From the NCBI GenBank assembly GCA_021463485.1, contig JAJTYJ010000003.1:88380-152379 (forward strand): DNA of 64,000 nucleotides. Direction: 5' to 3'. The stretch comes from a bacterium (GTDB taxonomy: Bacteria > Patescibacteriota > UBA1384 > 2-12-FULL-50-11). The position numbers and the translations under genes were made by a program. Numbering within the stretch: position 1 is the first letter of the stretch; every line of letters starts with the position of its first letter. This document shows positions 4,429-33,458 of the stretch, piece by piece. The notes below the pieces were generated by a model that made no database searches, was not told where the DNA came from, and saw only the letters and a list, made by a program, of their open reading frames with translations.

Positions 4429-4464
4429 CATTTACAACCTTACGGCACATAAGAGGTGTACATT

Positions 4465-4950
4465 ATGAACAATAAACGCAAACTTGTGGCAATTAGCCAC
4501 AACTACATCGGTGAGACGTTAGCCAAAAGTCTTCCAAACAAGCCGATCGAGCTTGAGCAGCGAGTGGTGATCCCCATCTCTGCCGAGCATCTTCTGGCTG
4601 CTCAACGGCCAAGAGCGGGTAGATTTGAGAACCGCGACTGGATGATTCAACAAGTTCGTGATCTGGAAATCGCCCTACAATCACCGGATCTGCTATTGCT
4701 CTATATTGGCAGATCACCGATGCTCGACGCTCTCAACTTCGCAACCCTGTTCGAGTCGGCAGAGATTCATTTGGTGTTAAACCGCGAACGTGACGTCGAG
4801 CTCAACTTCCAAGAGTCTTGGGATACTCGCCAATGGTCGTACTGGCCGATTCTGCACTTCGCTGAGACGACCGGCAACTGCACGATGGCGCGTCTGGTTG
4901 ATCAATTCATCAACGCCGGATTTATCCAGCCTGAACCGATTTGGTGGTAA
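4465..4950 (+). CDS. Hypothetical protein (162 aa)
   Basis: AAGAGGTG RBS 7 nt upstream of ATG 4465 (the ORF track's GTG at 4456 is less likely); no family recognised. Confidence 0.5.
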   Translation: MNNKRKLVAISHNYIGETLAKSLPNKPIELEQRVVIPISAEHLLAAQRPRAGRFENRDWMIQQVRDLEIALQSPDLLLLYIGRSPMLDALNFATLFESAEIHLVLNRERDVELNFQESWDTRQWSYWPILHFAETTGNCTMARLVDQFINAGFIQPEPIWW

Positions 4951-4978: not shown

Positions 4979-5002
4979 ATTGCTTACAAACGGGTTGCCT
5001 AA

Positions 5003-6973
<1,971 letters not shown>

Positions 6974-7039: not shown

Positions 7040-9637
7040 ATGGACGAAGAACTACGAAACGATTCAGCTGAGCAACTACCACAAGAGCCGATCGAAGATA
7101 CGGTAGATTCTGATACTCCCGAAACACAACCAAACGTTGTGGAGCAGCCACGAGAAGTTGTAGAGGAAAACTCAACCGAAAAAACATCGTTCGGTTTAAT
7201 TAGAGCACGATCAATTAATAACGAGATGAGTGAGAGCTATCTCGATTACGCGATGAGCGTTATCGTCTCTCGTGCACTTCCTGACGTTCGCGACGGCTTG
7301 AAGCCGGTGCATCGCCGTATTCTTTACGCCATGCATGATATGGGATTAACGCCGGGCGCAAAACACCGAAAATCAGCCAAGATCAACGGTGAAGTTTTAG
7401 GTAACTACCACCCGCACGGCGAGTTAGCGGTCTACGACGCGATGGTTCGTATGGCTCAGTGGTGGAGTTTGCGCTTACCGTTAGTTAACGGTCAGGGAAA
7501 CTTTGGATCGATGGACGGCGACTCTCCGGCTGCATCGCGATACACCGAGGCGCGTCTTGCGCCGCCCGCCGAAGCGCTATTAGCTGATATCGAGAAAGAA
7601 ACTGTCGATTATCGTGACAACTACGACGGTACACGCCAAGAACCGGTAGTTCTACCCACGCGATTACCAAATCTGTTAATCAACGGCTCACAAGGGATCG
7701 CTGTCGGTATGGCAACCAATATACCGCCGCACAATCCTGCTGAAGTTATCGACGGTCTACTTGTTCTACAGAAAAATCCAACAGCCTCGTTAGAAGAGCT
7801 GATGGAAGCAGTAAAAGGACCAGATTTTCCAACCGGCGGTATTATTTATAACCAAAACGATATTAAAGAAGCGTTTGCAACTGGACGCGGACGGATATTA
7901 ATTCGCGGTCGAGCGGAGATCGTCGAAGATAAAAAAAGAGAACAAATCGTTGTTACAGAGCTACCGTATCAGACCAACAAAGCAACGTTTATCGTTCATA
8001 TCGCCGAATTGGTTAAAGCTAAAAAAATTGAGGGTATCCACGACATTCGCGACGAATCCGATCGCAAAGAAGGTGTCAGAGTAGTGATCGAGCTAAAAAC
8101 CGGCGCCGTTTCTTCTAAGATTTTAAACCAGTTATACGAGCTAACCGAATTACAAACGGTAATTCACTACAATATGGTGGCGCTTGTCGACGGTATTCAA
8201 CCGAAAGTTCTAACCCTAACCGAAGCCCTAACAGAATTCTTGGGCCACCGCACTGACGTTGTGACGCGCCGCACTAACTACGAGCTCAAAATCGCCAAGG
8301 CCAGAGCTCACATATTAGAAGGATTAAAAATCGCGCTTGATCATTTGGACGCGATTATTAAATTAATTCGCGAGTCTGCTAACCGAGATGCTGCTAAGGC
8401 GGCGCTTATGAATTCGTACAAATTAAGCGAGATTCAAGCCAACGCTATTCTTGACATGCGCCTCTCGCAGCTAGCGAACCTTGAGCGTCAAAAAATCTAC
8501 GACGAATACGACGCTGTGATGAAGCTAATCGCCGATCTCGAAGATATTTTGGCTAAGCCGGAGCGAGTTGAAGCGATTATTCGTGATGAACTCTTGGAAA
8601 TGAAGAAAAAGTACGGCGATGCGCGGCGAACAGAAATTCGCCCAGAAGCGCTTAACGCTATGACAGCACTCGACCTTATTCCAGAAGAAAACGTCTTAAT
8701 TACGCTTACCGCCAACAACTATGTTAAGCGCTTAACCCCAGACACGTATCGTAGCCAGTCACGTGGCGGTAAGGGTGTTATCGGGATGACGACGCGCGAA
8801 GACGACGTTGTAATGGATATGATTTTTGCTTCAACCCACGACGATATTCTTTTTTTCACCGACAAAGGTCGGGCGTTTAAGGTAAAAACCTACGAGATCC
8901 CAGCCGCAAGTCGCCAAAGCAAGGGAGTAGCGCTGCCGAATATTATCCGGATTCTACCTGATGAGAAAGTAACCGAGATCGTAAGCGTGAAAGCGAGCGA
9001 TCAATTCGAGTACTTCTTCTTCGCAACGCGCGAAGGTACTGTCAAACGAGTCGAGCGAAAAGCGTTCGATAACGTTCGTAAAAGCGGCGTTACAGCTGTT
9101 GGTCTAAAAGGTAAAGACCAACTCATCTGGGTAAAAAGAACCAGTGGTAACGATGAGATCGCTCAAATAACTAAAAACGCTCAGGTGATTGTATACAACG
9201 AATCGGAAGTTCGGGCGATGGGTCGTAGCGCCTCGGGTGTACGCGGTATTAAGCTAAAAAGCGGTGACATCGTGATCGAGACGACAGTTCTTAACGAAGC
9301 CTCGCAATCGATTTGTGTTATTAGTGAGCGTGGTATCGGAAAACGAGTGTTATTAAAAGAATTCCGAAACCAACACCGCGGCGGTAGCGGTATCAGAATC
9401 GCAAAAATCACAGAAAAAACTGGCAAACTCGCCGCTGGGGCAGTGATCGAAGAGGGAGTAAACGATTTAATAATCTCCAGCGTCGGTGGTCAAGTTATCC
9501 GTATTCCTGTTAACGACGTCAAACATCTTTCAAGGCAAGCATCCGGAGTGATCCTCATGCGAACAAACGCTGGCGATACAGTAAGTACGCTCGCTGTTGT
9601 TAACCAGGAACAAGAAACCGAGAAAGAGCCATCATAA
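7040..9637 (+). CDS. gyrA: DNA gyrase subunit A
   Basis: SYLDYAMSVIVSRALPDVRDGLKPVHRRILYAM and the C-terminal beta-pinwheel; acidic ~45-aa N-terminal extension upstream of the conserved core, so true start uncertain. Confidence 0.93.
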   Translation: MDEELRNDSAEQLPQEPIEDTVDSDTPETQPNVVEQPREVVEENSTEKTSFGLIRARSINNEMSESYLDYAMSVIVSRALPDVRDGLKPVHRRILYAMHDMGLTPGAKHRKSAKINGEVLGNYHPHGELAVYDAMVRMAQWWSLRLPLVNGQGNFGSMDGDSPAASRYTEARLAPPAEALLADIEKETVDYRDNYDGTRQEPVVLPTRLPNLLINGSQGIAVGMATNIPPHNPAEVIDGLLVLQKNPTASLEELMEAVKGPDFPTGGIIYNQNDIKEAFATGRGRILIRGRAEIVEDKKREQIVVTELPYQTNKATFIVHIAELVKAKKIEGIHDIRDESDRKEGVRVVIELKTGAVSSKILNQLYELTELQTVIHYNMVALVDGIQPKVLTLTEALTEFLGHRTDVVTRRTNYELKIAKARAHILEGLKIALDHLDAIIKLIRESANRDAAKAALMNSYKLSEIQANAILDMRLSQLANLERQKIYDEYDAVMKLIADLEDILAKPERVEAIIRDELLEMKKKYGDARRTEIRPEALNAMTALDLIPEENVLITLTANNYVKRLTPDTYRSQSRGGKGVIGMTTREDDVVMDMIFASTHDDILFFTDKGRAFKVKTYEIPAASRQSKGVALPNIIRILPDEKVTEIVSVKASDQFEYFFFATREGTVKRVERKAFDNVRKSGVTAVGLKGKDQLIWVKRTSGNDEIAQITKNAQVIVYNESEVRAMGRSASGVRGIKLKSGDIVIETTVLNEASQSICVISERGIGKRVLLKEFRNQHRGGSGIRIAKITEKTGKLAAGAVIEEGVNDLIISSVGGQVIRIPVNDVKHLSRQASGVILMRTNAGDTVSTLAVVNQEQETEKEPS

Positions 9638-11337
9638 TGACAGAAAAAAACACACTAGTATTACCCGAAGAAATTTCGGTTCGGACGCTCGCTAGCGCCA
9701 TGAAAGTTGACCCGACAGTCGTAATCGGGAAGCTAATTAGTAACGGCGTGATGGCAACCATTAACCAAACGCTCGATTACGAGACGGCAGCGCTACTAGC
9801 CGAACAGATGGGCTTTACTACTTCGCTTGAAGAAAAAACAGTCAAAATTAATAAATCTGCGCAAGGTAAAGACGCGGTCGAACGCGCCCCGATCGTTACA
9901 ATTATGGGTCACGTCGATCACGGCAAGACGTCGTTACTAGATTATATTCGCCGTTCGAACATCGCTGCTGGTGAGTCTGGCGGAATTACGCAACACATCA
10001 GCGCGTATCAAATTGAATTTACTACCAGCGAGAAGCAAAAACGCAAAATTACATTCGTCGATACCCCAGGTCATGAGGCCTTCTCGGCGCTACGAGAACA
10101 TGGCGCAACACTTACAGATATCGTCGTATTAGTAGTTGCGGCTGACGACGGTGTTAAACCGCAAACCCTGGAAGTTATTCAACACGCTAAGAAAGCCAAC
10201 GTACCGATGATTGTGGCAATTAATAAAGCTGATCTGCCTACTACTAATATCGATCGAGTTAAACAACAGCTCTCCGAAAACGACGTAACCCCAGAAGAAT
10301 GGGGCGGTTCGACAGTAATGTTACCGATCTCAGCCAAAACAGGACAGGGCGTACCCGAGCTTTTGGAGATGATCGCGTTAACTGCCGATCTACTAGAATT
10401 AAAAGCCGATCCTGACGCTGTGCCGGAAGGGATAGTGATTGAAGCAAACCTCGATAAACAAGTCGGCCCGGTCGCAACAGTACTAATGTATAACGGTACG
10501 CTTCATCCCGGCCAAGTACTGGTGATCGGTTCAACCTACGGCCGTATTCGTTCGTTAGAAGATGATCTTCGCAGTCGCATCAGTTCGGCTGGTCCTTCAA
10601 AACCCGCTATCATTACAGGCTTAAAAGACGTACCGAGCTTCGGGGAGCGAATTGAGGTAGTACCGAACGAGAAAGTTGCTCGTTCTATGACACAAAGTGA
10701 TGCTAAACATAAAAAACACGGCGCGAAAGAAGGCGCTAACACCTATAAAGTAGTGCTAAAGGCAGACGTTGGTGGAAGTTTGGCAGCCTTTGAAGACTCG
10801 TTATCTAAACTCTCATTTAAAGACGCGACAATCGAAGTTCTTTCCAGCGGCATCGGACAAGTTAATGAAAACGATATTAACTTAGCGAAAACTTCCGGCG
10901 CAACTGTCATTTCGTTTAGAAGCGCTCCGATTAAGCGCGTTGCTGATATCGCAGAAAAAGAGGGCGTAATTCTTAAAGAATATTGGATTATTTACGATGC
11001 TATCGAGTTTCTAAATAGTGAGCTGAAACGAATCGCTACACCTGTTTTCGTAACAGAAGAGGTGGCGCGCCTAAAGGTACTAGCAATTTTTAGCCGCAAA
11101 GCGAAAAACGCTATTGTTGGTGGTGAAGTAACACAGGGTGTTGTCGTACCAAATGCAGATGTTACTGTTCTACGCGAAAAAGAAGAGGTCGGTACCGCCA
11201 AACTTAAAGAAATAAAAATCGGTAAACTAACTGTCGAACGCGCCGAAACCGGTACCCAGTGTGGAGTCTCACTTGAAGAAGTTAGCGACATCGCCGAAGG
11301 GGATATGCTGGTGTTCTCAATTACGCGAGAAGAGTAA
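9637..11337 (+). CDS. infB: Translation initiation factor IF-2 (short form lacking N-terminal domains)
   Basis: TAATG overlap with gyrA stop; G-domain [21 protein letters not shown]; only 566 aa. Confidence 0.93.
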   Translation: MTEKNTLVLPEEISVRTLASAMKVDPTVVIGKLISNGVMATINQTLDYETAALLAEQMGFTTSLEEKTVKINKSAQGKDAVERAPIVTIMGHVDHGKTSLLDYIRRSNIAAGESGGITQHISAYQIEFTTSEKQKRKITFVDTPGHEAFSALREHGATLTDIVVLVVAADDGVKPQTLEVIQHAKKANVPMIVAINKADLPTTNIDRVKQQLSENDVTPEEWGGSTVMLPISAKTGQGVPELLEMIALTADLLELKADPDAVPEGIVIEANLDKQVGPVATVLMYNGTLHPGQVLVIGSTYGRIRSLEDDLRSRISSAGPSKPAIITGLKDVPSFGERIEVVPNEKVARSMTQSDAKHKKHGAKEGANTYKVVLKADVGGSLAAFEDSLSKLSFKDATIEVLSSGIGQVNENDINLAKTSGATVISFRSAPIKRVADIAEKEGVILKEYWIIYDAIEFLNSELKRIATPVFVTEEVARLKVLAIFSRKAKNAIVGGEVTQGVVVPNADVTVLREKEEVGTAKLKEIKIGKLTVERAETGTQCGVSLEEVSDIAEGDMLVFSITREE

Positions 11338-23937: not shown

Positions 23938-24102
23938 ATGAAACTGAAAACGATCTCCGCCATTTTGTTGCTGCTTGTGGAGTTTATGCTCTTCTTCATC
24001 ACCGTTGAACCGCTTTGGGCAAAGGTAGTTGCAATAATCCTGCTTGGGATAGTCATCTTCCTAGCCGTCACCGACAAAAGCGAAAATAAGTTAAATCAGT
24101 AA
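23938..24102 (+). CDS. Small two-TM membrane protein (54 aa), not in ORF track
   Basis: ATG directly abuts the rpsG stop (TAAATG); MKLKTISAILLLLVEFMLFFITVEPLWAKVVAIILLGIVIFLAVTDKSENKLNQ; ends 9 nt before the fusA RBS. Confidence 0.45.
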   Translation: MKLKTISAILLLLVEFMLFFITVEPLWAKVVAIILLGIVIFLAVTDKSENKLNQ

Positions 24103-24111
24103 GGGAGATAC

Positions 24112-26301: not shown

Positions 26302-27483
26302 ATGGCAGCAACATTCGAACGCACAAAGCCGCACGTCAACGTTGGTACCATCGGTCACGTCGACCACGGTAAAACTACGTTAACGGCAGCTATCACAAAC
26401 ACACTCGCCGACAAGGGTTGGGCAGAGAAAAAGGCCGTTGATCAGATCGACAACGCCCCAGAAGAAAAACAGCGCGGTATTACTATCGCGACGTATCACG
26501 TTGAGTACGAGTCGGAGAAGCGACACTACGCTCACGTCGACTGTCCAGGACACGCCGACTACGTTAAGAACATGATTACCGGTGCCGCTCAAATGGACGC
26601 CGCTATTCTCGTGGTCTCTGCTCCAGACGGTCCGATGCCACAAACTCGTGAGCACATTCTGCTTGCGAAGCAGGTTGGTGTTCCGTACATCGTCGTCTTC
26701 TTAAACAAGTGCGACCAAGTTTCTGATCCAGATCTTCTCGAGCTCGTTGAAGAAGAAGTTCGCGATCTTTTAAACAAGTACGAGTACCCAGGTAAAGACA
26801 CACCGATCATTAAGGGCTCAGCTCTTAAGGCTATCGAAGGCGACGCTGACGCTAAGAAAGCAATCTTCGATCTTATTGAAGCGCTCGATTCTTACGTCCC
26901 AGAGCCAGTTCGTGAAACTGACAAACCTTTCTTGATGCCAGTAGAAGACGTCTTCTCAATCAAAGGCCGTGGTACGGTTGTTACCGGTCGTGTTGAGCGC
27001 GGTACCGTTAAGGTTGGTGAAGAAGTTGAAGTTGTCGGATTGAATGACACTAAGAAAACAGTTGTTACCGGAGTAGAAATGTTCCGCAAGCAGCTCGATT
27101 CTGGTCAAGCTGGCGATAACGTTGGTCTTCTTGTTCGTGGCTTAGAGCGCACAGATGTTGAGCGCGGCCAGGTTCTTTGTAAGCCAGGTTCGATTACTCC
27201 ACACACCGAGTTCGAAGCTGAGTGTTACATCCTTAAAAAAGAAGAAGGCGGACGACACACCCCATTCACCAAGGGTTACAAGCCTCAATTCTACTTCCGA
27301 ACCACTGATGTGACCGGAGAAGTTGAGCTTCCAGGCGACGCCGAGATGGTTGTCCCAGGCGACACTACAACCTTCAAAGTTAAACTCATCCAGCCAATCG
27401 CGATGGAAGAGAAACTCCGCTTCGCTATCCGCGAAGGTGGTAAGACGGTTGGTGCCGGTATCGTTACCAAAATTATCAAATAA
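26302..27483 (+). CDS. tuf: Elongation factor Tu
   Basis: [27 protein letters not shown]. Confidence 0.98.
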
Positions 27484-27504
27484 TAGGGAAGGAATTGTAC
27501 ATTA

Positions 27505-27837
27505 ATGGCCCAAAAGACCGCTCGCGAAGCTGCCAAATCCAGCATCCGCATCAAGCTTAAAGCGTACGATTACCGAGTAATCGATCGTTCCGCCAAGAAA
27601 ATTATCGAGGCGGCCGAGCGGACAGGGGCTATTATTGCCGGACCTATCCCGTTACCAACTGAGAAATCATTAGTAACGGTCAATCGCTCCACGTTCGTCC
27701 ACAAAGACGCACGCGAGCAGTTCGAAATTCGTATTCACAAGCGCATTATCGATGTCTTGGATCCAAATCCAAAAACCCTTGATGCCTTGATGAATCTCGA
27801 TCTCCCAGCCGGAGTGGATATTGAGATAAAAACGTAA
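27505..27837 (+). CDS. rpsJ: 30S ribosomal protein S10
   Basis: S10 family; GGAAGG RBS. Confidence 0.96.
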
Positions 27838-27863
27838 GAGTCTCACATTGAAACGCAAAAAGT

Positions 27864-27886
27864 CCGCTCACAAGAGCGGGTTTTTT
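27864..27886 (+). terminator. Rho-independent terminator immediately after rpsJ
   Basis: CCGCTC-ACAA-GAGCGG hairpin followed by GTTTTTTG. Confidence 0.75.
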
Positions 27887-27895
27887 GTAGAATTA

Positions 27896-27924
27896 TTGTC
27901 TAAAATAATTTTTCAGAGTATTAT
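27896..27924 (+). promoter_or_regulatory. Putative promoter TTGTCT-17-TATTAT for the GC-rich small-ORF unit
   Basis: 17-nt spacer; predicted TSS falls at the base of a CCTGGC-UUCG-GCCAGG tetraloop hairpin (27934-27949) that precedes a GGAGG RBS. Confidence 0.4.
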
Positions 27925-27973
27925 TTCCGTGTCCTGGCTTCGGCCAGGCGAATCCTACATGGAGGCACAAAAG

Positions 27974-28189
27974 ATGAATGGTTCGAACGTTCTTGAACGC
28001 ACTCACGCTGAGCCTAGCTCTTCGCTGGTGCGAGACATCAATTCGATTCAACCCGGGTCGACGGAACTGCTCAACGAGGGGCAGGCCCGAAAGCGACTCA
28101 CCGACACCCATACGATGCGAGCCCGAGAGCTCTGCCCTGCCCAGGGCAAGCGAGCGGCCGGTGGATTCCTCCAGCGAATCTTCGGCTAA
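27974..28189 (+). CDS. Small hypothetical protein (71 aa) in a GC-rich segment
   Basis: GGAGG RBS with 8-nt spacer to ATG; ~58% GC against ~45% in the surroundings; low-complexity composition, so coding status uncertain. Confidence 0.35.
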   Translation: MNGSNVLERTHAEPSSSLVRDINSIQPGSTELLNEGQARKRLTDTHTMRARELCPAQGKRAAGGFLQRIFG

Positions 28190-28262
28190 CGGGCGACCAA
28201 CGACGTGGGAGTTGTTCGTCGCTTTGAAGCGACAGTTCGAGAGACCGAAGAAACGTTTCCCG

Positions 28263-28532
28263 ATGAATTTTCCGTGGGTTTGTGGATGTGGCAAAGCCGG
28301 CTTCCCCGGCTGTAAAGACCGCGAGCACTTCTGCGAGCGCGTCTATCTAGCACTACTCGACTACCACCAACATCAGGAAACGAAATCCCGGAATCTCTGC
28401 TACTTCGTTGACGGCGGCGAACAACTTCTACGTGTCGACCAATTCAGTGCCAGGCGTATACAGCTACTCGAGGCAGACCTCGAGAAAGCTGAGACGATCT
28501 TGCGCAGAATGCTATCCGACAACCCCGCTTAA
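28263..28532 (+). CDS. Small Cys-rich hypothetical protein (89 aa from ATG; frame open upstream to GTG 28161/TTG 28212)
   Basis: WVCGCGKAGFPGCKDREHFCERV then a helical-looking C-terminal half; stop codon sits inside the terminator hairpin. Confidence 0.35.
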   Translation: MNFPWVCGCGKAGFPGCKDREHFCERVYLALLDYHQHQETKSRNLCYFVDGGEQLLRVDQFSARRIQLLEADLEKAETILRRMLSDNPA

Positions 28533-28551
28533 CCACAGCGGGGCTTTTCTT
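28523..28551 (+). terminator. Rho-independent terminator
   Basis: 7-bp stem CCCCGCT/AGCGGGG with 7-nt loop followed by CTTTTCTT. Confidence 0.7.
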
Positions 28552-28601
28552 GACAATAGAGCCTAAAGCACGTTGACTGTATAAAAATGGGTGGAGGGAG
28601 A

Positions 28602-29435
28602 ATGCACGAACAAATTAGGCCGCAGGCACACGTAGCGACGTGGGCGATTTCGGTGTTGATGGTGATACTAGCGGCGACGCTTGGTACAACTAACGATATT
28701 ACAAACGCAACTGAAGTCTACACAGCTCCGGACGGTACGAAGAAATACTTTACGTACGAGGGGAGCGGCGGGTTTAAGGCGCCAGACGCTTGTTTAAAAC
28801 CGACGGCAGAGCAGCAGGTGCAAATTGATCAAATTACAGTACTCAAAAAAGAGTTATTGGTGTTACAAGAGAAAGATACTTCGCAATTTACAGCTGAAGA
28901 AAAGGCTGCACACGAAGCTAAAATCCAAGAGTTATTAACTAAAATTAAAACAGCAGCTGGTACGGTGTCGACAGTAAAACCAGGGCCAACCGCAGAATGT
29001 AAGGCAGCGGTGGTGGCCGGCAATATTAAACTAATGACTGCACAGCTAGAACAAACAAAATCAAAACTAATTGTGAGCGTGGACAACGTAAGCGCCAAAA
29101 TAATAAAGGTTGAAGATGCAATTGCAAACATTAAGCCGACAACCGAGAATCAACCAATTCTAACTGCAATTACCGCTGATATTAACGCCGCAAAGCTTAA
29201 CCTAGCCATCCTTTCCGACTTTCTAACCAAGACACAATCTCAAATGGAATCGTTTTTAACGCTTTCAAAAACCGATCCTAACAAAGCGTACGATTCAATT
29301 AGAACCTTTAGGGTTGGCGGAGATAATCTGAAAGCTACAAAGGCAAGTGAAGGTATAATTAGCGCGTTTACGAGCCTGAAAGCCAATATCGAGCGCTTAA
29401 TCGAACTTACGGAGGGTAGTAATGGAAATATCTAA
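28602..29435 (+). CDS. Membrane-anchored coiled-coil hypothetical protein (277 aa)
   Basis: GGAGG 4 nt before ATG 28602 (the track's ATG 28587 lies inside the RBS); N-terminal TM VATWAISVLMVILAATLG; the remainder is alpha-helical and Lys/Ala/Thr-rich. Confidence 0.55.
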   Translation: MHEQIRPQAHVATWAISVLMVILAATLGTTNDITNATEVYTAPDGTKKYFTYEGSGGFKAPDACLKPTAEQQVQIDQITVLKKELLVLQEKDTSQFTAEEKAAHEAKIQELLTKIKTAAGTVSTVKPGPTAECKAAVVAGNIKLMTAQLEQTKSKLIVSVDNVSAKIIKVEDAIANIKPTTENQPILTAITADINAAKLNLAILSDFLTKTQSQMESFLTLSKTDPNKAYDSIRTFRVGGDNLKATKASEGIISAFTSLKANIERLIELTEGSNGNI

Positions 29436-29703
29436 TTCACCAGTACCGGCATCGCAGCCGCACTCAAAAGTCTGGTTAATGGTGACGCTCGTAGTAGCAG
29501 TAGTTGCAGCAGGTTTAATTTGGTATTTCTTGTATCCGAAGACAGAGGATTCAAGCACGCAGACCCCCGAGTCCCAAAAAACCGTCAAAAATGCAGTTGA
29601 TGAGACGCTAGTTGCAGCAAAAAACGATCTGAATACCGTTAATGTCGAGGAGTTAAAAGTTGCGGTCGACGAGTTAAAATCCACCCTTGACGCTTTTGAA
29701 TAA
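29422..29703 (+). CDS. Small membrane-anchored hypothetical protein (93 aa)
   Basis: GGAGGG RBS; overlaps the end of the upstream gene; single TM plus an acidic helical tail. Confidence 0.5.
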   Translation: MEISNSPVPASQPHSKVWLMVTLVVAVVAAGLIWYFLYPKTEDSSTQTPESQKTVKNAVDETLVAAKNDLNTVNVEELKVAVDELKSTLDAFE

Positions 29704-29709
29704 TAAAAT

Positions 29710-29727
29710 GCCCCGACGGTGCGGGGC
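29710..29727 (-). terminator. Hairpin terminator serving the minus-strand gene 29728..30189 (bidirectional context)
   Basis: GCCCCG-ACGGTG-CGGGGC; U-rich only on the minus strand (complement of TAATAAAAT). Confidence 0.6.
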
Positions 29728-30189
29728 TTAGAGATCGGCGTAGATCTCGGGTGGGACAACGAGGTCGAGCTTGTTTCGTTCGATCGCTTCAGCGATAACT
29801 TGCTCTCGGGTCATCTTGTAAACAACCATTCTTGTTGCAATCCAGCGGCAGATCGTCATGGCCGGTGAGAGACCGAGACTGATCATTACAACGGCGCTAG
29901 CTGCAAGGAGTTTTACGATCTCGCCGTGGTTAATCGAACGTAACTCGATTAAAAGATCGCCCACTGTCTTATAGAGCGCCATCGTCTCGTGCTCGATACA
30001 AAACCGGCAAGCTGTGTGCCCGTGTGGCTGAAAGATCATATGCGGTTGCGAATGAATAGGGCAATAAATACCTTGTTCGAGCGCGCATGATACACACGAG
30101 AACGGCGATTGCGAGAGATCAACTTGCTCGCAGAGTTCGGGAATCGTAACGACGATATCTGGTTCTTTCTGACAATACCGACAAACCAT
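29728..30189 (-). CDS. Zinc-ribbon (3x CxxC) membrane-associated hypothetical protein
   Basis: GGAG RBS 7 nt upstream of internal ATG 30189 (MVCRYCQ…); CRYC, CVSC and CRFC motifs; hydrophobic C-terminal segment; the track's start at 30276 lies inside a hairpin. Confidence 0.5.
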   Translation of the reverse strand: MVCRYCQKEPDIVVTIPELCEQVDLSQSPFSCVSCALEQGIYCPIHSQPHMIFQPHGHTACRFCIEHETMALYKTVGDLLIELRSINHGEIVKLLAASAVVMISLGLSPAMTICRWIATRMVVYKMTREQVIAEAIERNKLDLVVPPEIYADL

Positions 30190-30385
30190 AATGTAACTCC
30201 AAGGTGCTTTGCGTATTCTATCGAAAATGACCCGTAAAATATAGACAGATATGGATAAAAACCCTCCCGTCAGCATGATCGGGAGGTTGGAGATGAGAAG
30301 GGGTAACCTCTCGAGTTGAGTATACGCTCAAATATTAACCTCGTTTAGAGCTTGATTATTTCTGGGTAATTATTAAGGTGAAGTT

Positions 30386-30784
30386 ATGAACGGTTACGTA
30401 GAGAATGTCGAACTTGAGACACAACAGAATACCAACTTTCGCAAAGTAGTTTATACCGGCAAGCACTCGCAGTTGGTGCTGATGAGTCTGTTACCTGGTG
30501 AGGAAATTGGAGAAGAAGTTCACGAGGACGGCGATCAATTTTTCCGTGTTGATGACGGCGTCGGCAAGGTTGTAATTGATGGTGTAGAAACGGAGCTGAC
30601 TGACGGGAGTGCTGTGGTTGTTCCGGCTGGTGCTACTCATAACGTTATCAACACTTCGGAAACCGAGCCATTGAAGCTGTATACGATATACAGCCCTCCG
30701 CACCACCGCGAAGGAGTTGTCCACGCGACTAAAAACGACGCCGAAAACGATAACGAAGAGTTCGACGGTATAACTACGGAATAA
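30386..30784 (+). CDS. Cupin-domain protein (132 aa)
   Basis: Cupin-2 barrel motifs (G-x5-HxH-like: EEVHEDGDQFF; VVVPAGATHNVIN). Confidence 0.65.
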   Translation: MNGYVENVELETQQNTNFRKVVYTGKHSQLVLMSLLPGEEIGEEVHEDGDQFFRVDDGVGKVVIDGVETELTDGSAVVVPAGATHNVINTSETEPLKLYTIYSPPHHREGVVHATKNDAENDNEEFDGITTE

Positions 30785-30789
30785 AAAAA

Positions 30790-30807
30790 CCCGACCTTTC
30801 GGTCGGG
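30790..30807 (-). terminator. Terminator hairpin for the minus-strand gene 30833..31366
   Basis: 7-bp stem CCCGACC/GGTCGGG with UUUC loop; A7 tract on the plus strand gives a U7 tract on the minus transcript. Confidence 0.7.
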
Positions 30808-30832
30808 CGCGGCATTGCCGCAGGTTGTACTC

Positions 30833-31366
30833 CTAATTGGAGCTGGGTGCCGGCTCTTCGGCCGGTTTTGGGGAATCGCCCTCGCTTCTTCGTCGCCTCA
30901 ACTCGTCGAGGTCGATCTCAACCAGGTCGCCCATGCCGCCAAGTAATGCGCCGAGCAGACCGCGGCCGCGCTCTCTGCGCATGGCATCGCGGAATCGCTG
31001 GCGATCGGTGGTGACGACGTGGTAGCCGACACCGTTACAGTTGCACTCTTCGACTTCCCACTTGCCGTCGACGGCGAGCATCTCGGTCAGTTTCTCGCGA
31101 CCGACTTGGAAGTGGAGGAAATGGACGACTGAATCAGCGATTTGGTAGTCCTTCGCTTTGTCGGACGAAAAGATGCCGGCCTTGAGAACCATGTCGCAGA
31201 TTCCCTGACGGTGATCTTCGGGGATGTGCTCGTGCTTGCGTGCCTCCAGGCTTGCTGAAACCTGATTGATAGCATCTTGACTTGGCTCGTCTGAAACAAA
31301 AGTGTTCAGAGCGTTGCGGAACAGTTCCCACCCTGGGGTGGTTGGTGCAGCGAATGTGTTTTCCAT
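30833..31366 (-). CDS. Hypothetical protein (177 aa), apparently strongly expressed
   Basis: AGGGGGAG RBS ~10 nt upstream of ATG 31366 (MENTFAAP…); the track's TTG start at 31444 lies in the promoter; charged C-terminal tail; no family recognised. Confidence 0.55.
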   Translation of the reverse strand: MENTFAAPTTPGWELFRNALNTFVSDEPSQDAINQVSASLEARKHEHIPEDHRQGICDMVLKAGIFSSDKAKDYQIADSVVHFLHFQVGREKLTEMLAVDGKWEVEECNCNGVGYHVVTTDRQRFRDAMRRERGRGLLGALLGGMGDLVEIDLDELRRRRSEGDSPKPAEEPAPSSN

Positions 31367-31415
31367 AATGTTAGCTGGTACTCCCCCTGTGAAAGTATTC
31401 ACAAGTTGCCGAAAA

Positions 31416-31444
31416 ATTATAGTACGGACTCGGTTTATTGTCAA
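31416..31444 (-). promoter_or_regulatory. Perfect-consensus sigma70 promoter TTGACA-17-TATAAT on the minus strand
   Basis: Minus strand reads TTGACA ATAAACCGAGTCCGTAC TATAAT; positioned ~45 nt upstream of the RBS of gene 30833..31366. Confidence 0.7.
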
Positions 31445-31451
31445 GGTATTA

Positions 31452-31478
31452 ATAATAAAAACCCGCCGTGAGGCGGGG
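31452..31478 (-). terminator. Rho-independent terminator after the ketosynthase gene
   Basis: CCCGCC-GTGA-GGCGGG hairpin followed on the minus strand by a U tract. Confidence 0.65.
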
Positions 31479-31483
31479 AGGTC

Positions 31484-32584
31484 TTACGGCCAACGATAGG
31501 CGATGAAGTTGTAAACGACACCGCCACCGAATGTGGCGAAGATAAGTTGGTCGTTTCGTTGGAAGTGGCCGAGCTCGGCGTAATGCGCGAGCGTACTAAA
31601 CACCGAAGCAGAAGATTGGTTACCGCGCTCAGCGATCCGATTAAGCACCCGCTCGGGCGGTATGCCGATAGCTTCGCCGAGTCGTCGAACCATTCTCCAA
31701 TTGCCGTTGTGTGGTAGTAGGAACGTTCGTTCGTCGACAGAAATACGCGAGTCAACTATGAATTGCTTGAGTTTTTGAGCGATCGGTCCGATTACCCACT
31801 GGTAGATCTCCGTACCCCTACCTTCCATTGAAGCGTTCAATGCTGGAAAACGACGGTGGTCTGGGTGGACGCCGATCCCGCGACTGCGAGTGGTGCCAGA
31901 TAGGCTGCCATCAGCTCGAGAGATGAAATCTTGTACACCGAAGTTTCTGTTATCGGAGAAACCGGCATATACAACAACTGCGCTACCGCCGTCGCCCCAA
32001 AGCAGAGCGTTCTCGTCCATATGGTCGTTGCAACGCGAACCGATCGTCTCGCCGACTGCAACCAAAGCGTACATATCGCAGCCAGTTTGGAGTGCTCGAA
32101 CAGTTTCGATGAACGCTTGTGTGCCAGAACAGCAAGCTGCTGAAACATCGAACGCTTCAGCATCAGGGATGTTAAGCAAGTGTTGCAACTTGGCAGCGCA
32201 GCTTGGATAGAGATCGTCTGGTGTAGAACCGCCACTAACAATGAGGTGGATTTTCTCTCTCGAGAAGTTCGGGTTATTACGCTCAGCTACAGCGATCGCT
32301 CGTTCAGCTGCTTGTCGGGCTAGTTCTGTTGAATCGGCTTCAGGTATGTATTGTCTGGTGACGATCCCGAGTTTTTTGGTAACGGATTCGGTAGTATGAG
32401 CTCGAACTTTTTCAAGCTCAAGCCTGTACCTCTCGCGCTCGTGCTCGGATTGTTGAGAACCGACAACTAATGGTTCGAGCTTGCGCTCGATTGCCCGCAA
32501 AACGGTCGGGTTGTCGACAGAAAAACGATCTTCGGTTGGAGTATCGCCCCAGCCGATGATCTGGATTGGGTGGGAAAGTCGCAT
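31484..32584 (-). CDS. FabH-like 3-oxoacyl-ACP synthase III family ketosynthase (366 aa)
   Basis: AAGGAGAAG RBS; Cys-His-Asn triad context (FDVSAACCSG, LPHNGN, RGNQSSASV); thiolase fold. Confidence 0.75.
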   Translation of the reverse strand: MRLSHPIQIIGWGDTPTEDRFSVDNPTVLRAIERKLEPLVVGSQQSEHERERYRLELEKVRAHTTESVTKKLGIVTRQYIPEADSTELARQAAERAIAVAERNNPNFSREKIHLIVSGGSTPDDLYPSCAAKLQHLLNIPDAEAFDVSAACCSGTQAFIETVRALQTGCDMYALVAVGETIGSRCNDHMDENALLWGDGGSAVVVYAGFSDNRNFGVQDFISRADGSLSGTTRSRGIGVHPDHRRFPALNASMEGRGTEIYQWVIGPIAQKLKQFIVDSRISVDERTFLLPHNGNWRMVRRLGEAIGIPPERVLNRIAERGNQSSASVFSTLAHYAELGHFQRNDQLIFATFGGGVVYNFIAYRWP

Positions 32585-32795
32585 GAGGCTTCTCCTTATT
32601 GTTCAGGTTCAAACCTGTAGTGCAATTTTGGCACGATCTTCAAAAGATATCCAGGTATTGCAACAGATAAAAAAATTCAGTATTTTTCCAAAACGGTCGC
32701 CAGGACCGTCAAGTGGGCCAAGAGCGGCTGCTTGGCAGAGTTGCCACTTGCTCCGGCGGGTTGCGGCGCCACAATCGCCGCGCCCGCTTATTTTC

Positions 32796-32824
32796 TTGAC
32801 TTACTCTCGAAAAAGCCTCATAAT
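32796..32824 (+). promoter_or_regulatory. Near-consensus promoter TTGACT-17-CATAAT driving rplC and the downstream ribosomal operon
   Basis: 17-nt spacer; ~50 nt upstream of the rplC ATG. Confidence 0.65.
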
Positions 32825-32876
32825 TGGTAAGCATATTCAACCTGTTACGAGTTGAGTGTTAAATATTTAATTCTAA

Positions 32877-33458
32877 ATGAAAATTCTTTTAGGACAGAAA
32901 ATTGGTATGACACAGCTTTGGGATAACAAGGGCAAGCTTGTTGCGGCCACTGTTATTCAGGCACAGCCAAATAAAGTTCTACGACACGGCGAAAGCCGCG
33001 TTTTTGTTGCGGCTAACGTTCGTGGCAAAGTTAATAAACCACAACAAAAATTAGCTAAAGAAGCCGGCATCACCGACGGCATGTGGTTAAAAAGCGTTAC
33101 TGATGTTGAAGGCGAAACGCTCGATGTAACACAGTTTGAAATCGGTGACGTTGTGACAGTTAGTGGTACCACTAAAGGTAAGGGTTTTAGCGGTACGATT
33201 AAACGTCATAACTTCCACCGCGGACCGATGACTCACGGTGGTGATAACCATCGCGGACCGGGTTCGATCGGTGCACAACGACCGCAGCGCGTACCGAAAG
33301 GTCAGAAAATGGCCGGTCATCTCGGTAACGTTCAGTTTACTTCTCGCGGAAACAAGGTTATCGCCGTCGAGCCAGCTGAGAACTTATTAGTGATCGCTGG
33401 TGCAGTGCCAGGACCAAAAAAATCTAACGTTATCGTCCGATTACAGGAGAATAAATAA
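32877..33458 (+). CDS. rplC: 50S ribosomal protein L3
   Basis: L3 family motifs. Confidence 0.95.
   Translation: MKILLGQKIGMTQLWDNKGKLVAATVIQAQPNKVLRHGESRVFVAANVRGKVNKPQQKLAKEAGITDGMWLKSVTDVEGETLDVTQFEIGDVVTVSGTTKGKGFSGTIKRHNFHRGPMTHGGDNHRGPGSIGAQRPQRVPKGQKMAGHLGNVQFTSRGNKVIAVEPAENLLVIAGAVPGPKKSNVIVRLQENK

Follow-up and report, generated by a model that had tools for sequence, protein, structure and literature searches.

The 64,000-nt stretch of Patescibacteriota DNA analysed here (hereafter the window; JAJTYJ010000003.1, positions 88,380-152,379, forward strand, of assembly GCA_021463485.1, lineage UBA1384; 2-12-FULL-50-11) contains an unusual interruption of the ribosomal super-cluster, in which 5,039 nt carrying seven open reading frames (ORFs) on both strands separate rpsJ, the gene for ribosomal protein S10, from rplC, the gene for L3. 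A first-pass annotation made from these letters alone had rightly reported a split of ~5 kb with seven or so genes. Comparison with related loci leads us to think it likely that the interval represents the local state of a flexible-genome hotspot at an apparent operon boundary in a clade of the candidate phyla radiation (CPR). That is, the extended str unit would end in an intrinsic terminator after rpsJ, the rplC operon would fire from its own conserved promoter, and the DNA in between would be organized in three layers. The first would be an old, vertically inherited anchor beside rplC, a seemingly catalytically intact FabH-like gene, joined in closer relatives by a BH2720-type cupin gene and by D153, which encodes a putative zinc-ribbon protein. 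The second would consist of swappable cassettes running from promoter to terminator, such as the F177 unit, which would alternate with msrA plus a gene for a 148-aa protein, or the A184-B282-C93 genes, which would alternate with a methyltransferase/DUF3467 block. The third would be a slot right after the rpsJ terminator, empty here and filled in sister strains by restriction-modification (R-M) and other defence genes. Cargo would be exchanged by homologous recombination, with the tuf-rpsJ and FabH-like/rplC flanks serving as arms. This principal feature was invisible to the first-pass annotation, because other genomes are needed to see cassettes being swapped. Coordinates of all features are given in Table 1.

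A wide split of this kind is rare, since the distance between rpsJ and rplC is only 16-776 nt in 78 of the 80 species genomes that match rpsJ best. Among the same 80, one Saccharimonadales genome has a gap of 4.7 kb containing genes for RNase H, an MgsA-type ATPase and unknown proteins. The closest species-level genome, labelled 'Patescibacteria group bacterium' (L001; related loci are designated by L numbers), has an S10 protein 95% identical to that of the window, the S10 of Berkelbacteria being 76% identical, and contains no rplC within 10 kb of rpsJ. Six independent assemblies hold an island identical to ours. All seven island ORFs are under purifying selection (dN/dS, the ratio of nonsynonymous to synonymous substitution rates, 0.04-0.24 against strain or species variants), in agreement with the earlier suggestion that the genes are selectively retained.

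The rpsJ-rplC junction had been described as one of the most conserved in bacteria, a view that does not apply to this phylum, where the junction appears not to be tightly conserved. In the window, tuf and rpsJ are separated by 21 nt, and among 15 CPR-labelled loci the median gap is 87 nt between tuf and rpsJ and 201 nt between rpsJ and rplC, whereas 58 loci from Bacillota and others display the reverse pattern (medians of 512 and 42 nt, respectively). Thus, rpsJ appears to close an extended str unit (rpsL-rpsG-fusA-tuf-rpsJ) and rplC to start an operon of its own, and it is because of these spacers, together with a recurring rpsJ terminator and rplC promoter, that we place the island at an apparent, pre-existing operon boundary. 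The str unit also contains a second small indel site, in that rpsG and fusA, which are separated by a 171-nt spacer in the window (23938-24108), flank an additional gene in L093 (6187-6603), encoding a 136-aa protein without Pfam match. Moreover, in L089 (GCA_964408575.1, 13810-15196) the DNA from tuf to the accessory genes yielded no detectable rpsJ and the fusA call was fragmented, which reflects either a poor assembly or the loss or relocation of rpsJ.

Transcription signals recur at both ends of the interval. The terminator that the first-pass annotation had assigned to rpsJ was recovered as a strong predicted hairpin followed by a U-run, and the same or an equivalent hairpin is found in all relatives compared (L001, L083, L084, L085, L093 and L103). 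The near-consensus promoter proposed for rplC likewise held up: its -35 hexamer TTGACT is invariant in five lineages (the window, L093, L083, L089 and L085) and its -10 element is kept in the same five as nATAAT, or AAAAT in L085, at an L3/rplC identity between them of only about 60%. The GC-rich hairpin just upstream of the -35 hexamer, retained in L083 and L093, may block plus-strand read-through into the rplC operon. Within the interval, the A184 promoter retains its TTGCCx/TTGTCT hexamer, 17-nt spacing and TATTAT motif in L087, L093 and L103, with spacers that differ in sequence. The 5' leader of A184 could form a hairpin that, as folded in silico, engages part of the GGAGG ribosome-binding site in base pairing; its stem is retained in L103 with one G-C to G-U change, and any function that it may have is purely conjectural. 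Taken together, the rpsJ terminator and the rplC promoter, both conserved in relatives, fit independent transcription units with predicted transcript ends. The idea of insulated units thus agrees with the signals present, but is less well served by their numbers, which are only modestly above those of shuffled sequences (14 terminator-like sites versus 8.3 +/- 2.8 and 13 promoter-like sites versus 6.2 +/- 2.5).

The loci of relatives were drawn from JGI, Logan and NCBI, with up to 10 kb of flank viewed per locus, and revealed eleven different contents between tuf-rpsJ and FabH-like/rplC in the eleven lineages sampled, that is, an accessory region restricted by lineage, as had been suspected. 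The slot following the rpsJ terminator, which is empty in the window, is occupied in relatives by defence genes spanning 3.7 to more than 9 kb. In L093, L096 and L098, whose S10 proteins are identical to that of the window, a gene for a 172-aa protein, an Eco47II-type R-M pair, a PDDEXK_1 gene and a gene for a 149-aa protein separate the rpsJ terminator from the A184 promoter. L103-L107 carry a type I-like R-M system, an HNH gene, an HTH-Panacea pair, PDDEXK_1 and a trypsin-like protease; L087 an AAA_15/SMC ATPase, a ResIII helicase, PDDEXK_1 and a protease; L110 an SduA_C (Shedu) gene, an EcoO109I R-M pair and a gene for a LexA-like protein, and no A184; and L001 a complete type I R-M system plus an OLD/Gabija-like ATPase. 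A methyltransferase gene, with or without DUF3467, is present in L083 and L084, and two small unknown genes in L085, while in L109 (3107-12981) the cargo comprises genes for a heliorhodopsin, a GH18/CBM5_12 protein, a large GT2 glycosyltransferase, a serine hydrolase, a cupin and a type I HsdR. B282 and C93 are both missing in L103-L107 and L083-L085. Type I R-M occurs in L001, L103-L107 and L109 and type II R-M in L093 and L110; PADLOC recognized both types, an Old/Gabija-like ATPase and a type III-like restriction endonuclease helicase in the slot of the relatives, and Pfam matches in their cargo included SduA_C, RE_EcoO109I and SocA_Panacea, the Panacea antitoxin domain (L103). Among the window's own island proteins, PADLOC gave no match of meaningful level.

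Against L093 the boundaries of these differences are sharp. At window positions 27838/27916, L093 has 3.9 kb of extra DNA, and between 30787 and 31457 the 669-nt F177 unit is replaced by msrA and the gene for a 148-aa protein that has no similarity to F177. The expectation that a native region would be shared by close relatives is borne out in part, as the FabH-like gene is retained at 50-98% identity and the cupin gene and D153 are retained at a FabH-like identity of at least 77%, but the other cassettes vary. A literature search for a defence hotspot at the rpsJ-rplC junction found no paper. With regard to the cargo itself, a Cas4-like PDDEXK_1 nuclease is common to four otherwise different defence cargos (L087, L093, L103-L107 and L110), in which it is encoded beside A184 or B282, and in three of these four it is accompanied by a 420-aa trypsin-like protease. 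Similar protease domains are found as fusions to defence proteins in PADLOC. Both genes are absent from the window, and the two may form a conserved module.

The most stable component of the interval is the FabH-like gene, transcribed divergently from rplC. It adjoins rplC in this orientation in L110, L087, L093, L103-L107, L083, L084, L085 and L089, at identities of 98-50%, and is separated from rplC by a single NT5C gene in L109 (64% identity), its homologues falling off by degrees in identity from 98% to 36%. Those at 49% and 36% sit elsewhere, between rplJL and His_Phos_1/TGT (L090 and L092, 10001-11146), and in these distant relatives the cupin gene and D153 are not found at that locus. 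In relation to L093, synonymous divergence (dS) of the island genes is 0.11-0.19, similar to that of fusA (0.215) and tuf (0.185), so that the core of the interval has diverged in step with the genome. This points to vertical descent rather than recent transfer for the island genes compared. In L085 (about 9440-9870, minus strand) the spacer between the FabH-like gene and rplC contains ~340 nt of extra GC-rich DNA, which has no Rfam match and does not fold better than shuffled sequences (z-score -1.26).

The FabH-like protein matches Pfam ACP_syn_III (PF08545, 4.6e-7) and ACP_syn_III_C (PF08541, 2.3e-17) and aligns over its full length with FabH structures, the best being PDB entry 4wzu (3e-27), FabH2 of Vibrio cholerae. 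Residues C151, H292 and N322 do not vary across an alignment of 18 family members, ordinary FabH included, and align with the catalytic motifs of 4wzu. The protein thus shares with FabH/KAS III enzymes both halves of the thiolase fold and the Cys-His-Asn triad, but departs from solved FabH proteins in its identity of ~30%, an extra N-terminal segment of ~50 residues and the absence of fatty-acid synthesis neighbours, with scores that fall below the NCBIfam cut-offs (NF006829, 159 bits versus 249; TIGR00747, 131.8 versus 292.1). The scanned window ORFs and the listed related loci showed no fab or acp gene. Our reading of the protein is that of an active enzyme, either a condensing enzyme or an acyltransferase. 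CPR bacteria are generally considered unable to make fatty acids; a literature search on FabH in CPR found no paper, and two scans of JGI metagenome contigs with the FabH-like protein found nothing.

As for the route of exchange, the rpsJ gene of L093 displays a clear change in mismatch density relative to the window. Its 5' two-thirds show 1-5 mismatches per 100 nt and its last 130 nt ~19 per 100 nt (97% identity over the 5' 200 nt, 80% over the 3' 133 nt), while the encoded S10 is identical. This breakpoint has the appearance of a recombination tract with one end inside rpsJ. In L093, moreover, the last ~45 nt of rpsJ and the terminator recur in degenerate form 134 nt downstream of the intact gene, and in L087 the FabH-like allele has a dS of 0.49 compared with 0.05-0.25 for the neighbouring genes. 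No integrase, recombinase or transposase domain was found in the listed cargo of the relatives. Similarly, a Pfam search detected no integrase or transposase domain among the island proteins of the window, as the first-pass annotation had stated, and no flanking direct repeats were seen at the island junctions compared. We infer that cargo is most likely exchanged by homologous recombination on the conserved flanks, site-specific mobile elements being a less likely route. Separately, the tuf-rpsJ DNA of the window (26559-27888) is 92% identical to that of L083, the ribosomal protein operon being only about 80% identical, and this could possibly reflect very strong codon constraint or recombination between lineages.

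Several points weigh against the hotspot interpretation. The recombination argument draws mainly on one breakpoint (L093) and one divergent allele (L087); the rpsJ 3' duplicate of L093 could be a scar of site-specific integration, and mobility genes might conceivably lie beyond the flank of at most 10 kb that was viewed. The loci of L087, L109 and L110 stop before rpsJ and that of L001 stops before rplC, so that, together with L089, in which rpsJ was not detected, the cargo of five loci is placed in the interval only because it adjoins one of the flanks. Terminators and promoters were predicted from sequence, and since their counts exceed those of shuffled controls only about twofold, it is their conservation that carries more weight. 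Finally, the atypical composition of A184 and F177 (see below) suggests that some cassettes probably came originally from outside the lineage.

A more far-reaching version of the hotspot interpretation, which we regard as unlikely, would have the ribosomal super-cluster spacer be the main docking site for defence cassettes in this CPR clade, moved between species by homologous recombination on the near-invariant tuf-rpsJ and rplC flanks without mobile-element machinery, with the uncharacterised units found there alongside R-M systems (A184-B282-C93, the PDDEXK_1/trypsin pair and the strongly promoted orphan F177) being new defence or phage-sensing genes. More doubtful still is site-specific integration at the 3' end of rpsJ, as occurs at tRNA and tmRNA genes, in which case the window would show an unoccupied or cured site. 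The degenerate rpsJ 3' copy and terminator in L093 would be what integration into the 3' end of a gene usually leaves behind, and every insertion begins directly after the rpsJ terminator; however, the duplicate precedes the R-M genes instead of lying at the far end of the cargo, the insert lacks flanking direct repeats, no cargo viewed encodes an integrase, recombinase or transposase domain, right-hand boundaries vary among the variants, and the graded mismatch density in rpsJ suits a homologous recombination tract.

The first-pass annotation had leaned towards a single island gained by horizontal transfer, possibly a small module for biosynthesis or envelope modification, placed into a conserved junction and kept as a unit, and we consider this the least credible of the explanations that merit discussion. 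It could accommodate a KAS III-type enzyme with an intact Cys-His-Asn triad, a cupin that distantly matches PDB chains named as tetracenomycin polyketide synthesis cupins (1e-10), and the S-adenosylmethionine methyltransferase present within the interval in L083 and L084. Against such a module, the genes form separate units on both strands with their own terminators, the FabH-like gene alone is common to the clade (L085 pairs it with two unrelated small genes, and distant relatives have it at another locus without cupin or D153), the B282/C93 pair is missing in L103-L107 and L083-L085, and island dS is similar to that of core genes. No finding links the genes to a common pathway.

Base composition bears on the same issue. 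The two GC-rich patches on which acquisition had been argued are real and unique in the 64 kb, in which 400-nt windows with at least 55% GC occur only at 27901-28500 and 30601-31300 (peak 60.5%), but their reported GC of ~58% was overstated (55.0% for 27900-28550 and 52.6% for 30830-32860, compared with 46.0% for the rest of the island, 49.6% for the island as a whole and 46.3% for the window). Measured by GC content at third codon positions (GC3) across 65 ORFs, only A184 (0.64, z 3.4) and F177 (0.62, z 3.1) are outliers in the island, B282, D153, the cupin gene and the FabH-like gene lying within 1.5 standard deviations. There is thus no composition shift across the whole island, the classical sign of a horizontally acquired one, and acquisition as one recent block finds no support either here or in the dS values. 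The third GC3 outlier of the window is an ORF of 164 aa (4456-4950, plus strand; 0.59, z 2.6), without Pfam match, between a glycosyltransferase gene and gyrB. A phage or plasmid origin of the island was also considered and dropped: no phage DNA match was obtained, and only the cupin gene gave plasmid DNA and PHROG hits. Lastly, that the split is an assembly or binning artefact joining unrelated contigs at repeated ribosomal genes, as might be feared of a metagenome assembly, can be dismissed as practically impossible, because independent assemblies of different runs agree at 100% identity over a 21-kb stretch that includes the island, other projects (JGI, Logan) have yielded related though not identical versions between the same flanks, and rpsJ and rplC are single copy in the window.

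Table 1. Features of the rpsJ-rplC interval and its flanks, in window coordinates; transcription signals are predictions
Feature	Position	Strand	Remarks
rpsJ (ribosomal protein S10)	27505..27837	+	Left conserved flank of the proposed hotspot
Intrinsic terminator after rpsJ	27855..27889	+	Symmetric A-run, hairpin, U-run; dG -18.8 kcal/mol, z -6.2
Insertion slot after rpsJ terminator	27889..27915	.	Empty here (27 nt); breakpoints versus L093 and L087
A184 promoter	27896..27924	+	TTGTCT-17-TATTAT; sequence match
A184 5' leader hairpin	27925..27964	+	UUCG-capped stem; dG -19 kcal/mol, z -2.8
A184	27978..28532	+	Orphan; conserved Cys/His-rich C-terminal domain, FPxxFxWxCxC...RVYLALLDYHQ
Terminator-like hairpin at A184 end	28523..28543	+	z -3.7
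B282	28587..29435	+	N-terminal transmembrane helix, long helical/coiled region
C93	29422..29703	+	Small single-pass membrane protein; overlaps end of B282
Terminator after D153	29710..29727	-	Predicted hairpin
D153	29728..30189	-	Putative Zn-ribbon plus helical bundle; family widespread, uncharacterised
Cupin, BH2720 family	30386..30784	+	Single-domain; Pfam Cupin_2 8.5e-17; PDB 2oa2 1.5e-27
F177 cassette	30788..31456	-	Self-contained unit; gene 31366-30833, 177 aa
F177 terminator	30808..30789	-	Predicted hairpin
F177 promoter	31444..31416	-	TTGACA-17-TATAAT; perfect sigma-70-type, 12/12 positions
Terminator after FabH-like gene	31462..31477	-	Predicted hairpin
FabH-like (KAS III-type) condensing enzyme	31484..32584	-	Divergent from rplC; N-terminal extension ~50 aa
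GC-rich hairpin, then UUAUUUU	32755..32787	+	Just upstream of rplC -35; dG -24.1 kcal/mol, z -2.2
rplC operon promoter	32796..32824	+	TTGACT-17-CATAAT; sequence match
rplC (L3)	32877..33458	+	First gene of rplC-rplD-rplW-rplB... operon; right conserved flank

The functions of A184, B282, C93, D153, F177 and the FabH-like enzyme are ones that we infer. A184, B282, C93 and F177 have no informative match in Pfam, NCBIfam, PADLOC, PHROGs or phage/plasmid DNA, and viral contigs yielded no relative of A184 or F177. A184 was taken as coding because 10 of its 13 substitutions sit at third codon positions; a structured RNA in the GC-rich stretch 27900-28550 was considered and dropped on the same ground and for want of an Rfam hit (in the interval as a whole, no Rfam hit reached gathering thresholds, only terminator look-alikes with E up to 5 being returned). 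Only three homologous clusters of A184 exist in 5.8 billion proteins. Its N-terminal half is fast-evolving (omega, i.e. dN/dS, 0.44) and its C-terminal half strongly constrained (0.05). A 72-codon ORF with a well-placed GGAGG (27974-28189, plus strand) overlaps the N-terminal half in another frame, with an omega of about 0.43-0.44 in both frames, and dual coding of this segment, or a mis-set start of A184, is conceivable. Outside the interval, L108 has an A184-like gene (39% identity; 5000-5518) between rplJ-rplL and His_Phos_1/TGT, so that the A184-like and FabH-like families both recur beside ribosomal protein operons at this different junction.

B282 and C93 are conserved to different degrees (dN/dS of 0.04 and 0.20, respectively), and B282 may alternatively start at ATG 28602, preceded by a GGAGG site, giving a protein of 277 aa. 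For D153, the start was set at ATG 30189, replacing an ORF of 182 aa, because the alignments with ~100 homologous families begin at residue 1. The D153 family has five invariant Cys/His positions and four more that are kept in at least 90% of its members; the structure was predicted with a pLDDT of 95.2, and neither a PDB fold match nor a Pfam family was found. The small cupin is unusually conserved, being 95% identical at the amino-acid level in L083 although dS is saturated, and it resembles the BH2720 cupin (2oa2, a structural-genomics protein) in its full-length match and single cupin barrel. It also matches phrog_13536, a phage protein family of unknown function (3.5e-29), and at the DNA level its gene matches plasmid-borne cupin genes of Chelativorans and Sphingobium (68.5% over 348 nt). 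F177, translated from ATG 31366 downstream of its perfect promoter, has a dN/dS of 0.24 and only two homologous clusters in the same 5.8 billion proteins; a fold search with it was dropped, the AF2 model from a three-sequence alignment being poor (pLDDT 61).

Hotspots and defence islands flanked by core genes are known from bacterial pangenomes, having been described for E. coli and Pseudomonas aeruginosa. The locus studied here is a fresh example of this known type. As there, the same core-gene interval holds different, defence-rich cargo, some sites are empty, and dedicated mobility genes would be dispensable if exchange runs through flanking homology. What sets the locus apart is its position within the ribosomal super-cluster of a CPR bacterium: the flanks are among the most conserved translation genes (tuf-rpsJ and rplC), the host has a reduced genome, and an old, apparently vertical FabH-like anchor is included. 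In cyanobacteria, plastids and archaea, the S10 gene also follows directly after that of EF-Tu, apart from the L3-L4-L23-L2 cluster, but there the two clusters are usually far apart, whereas here they remain neighbours separated by a variable spacer.

Multigene insertions among the concatenated rpoBC-str-S10-spc-alpha operons have been reported by Brandis, Cao and Hughes 2019 (PMC6735719), who describe bfd, bfr and hopD between the str and S10 operons of Salmonella. Both cases involve small sets of non-mobility genes between translation operons that each keep their own signals. The break in Gammaproteobacteria, however, is at the tufA/rpsJ boundary, whereas in the window it falls after rpsJ, which remains next to tuf, and before rplC, and the strain-level cargo turnover and defence genes found here are not described in that study.

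For annotation, a caution follows in that rpsJ appears to go with tuf in this phylum. As by-products, the analysis brings to light a FabH-like enzyme retained in a CPR lineage and, in D153, a widespread family of putative zinc-binding proteins with a confidently predicted fold for which no solved relative was found. More generally, how accessory and defence genes turn over in CPR/Patescibacteria matters, as these bacteria have tiny genomes with few recognizable mobile elements, and an interval flanked by the universal markers tuf, rpsJ and rplC offers a practical site at which to survey defence turnover and gene flow.

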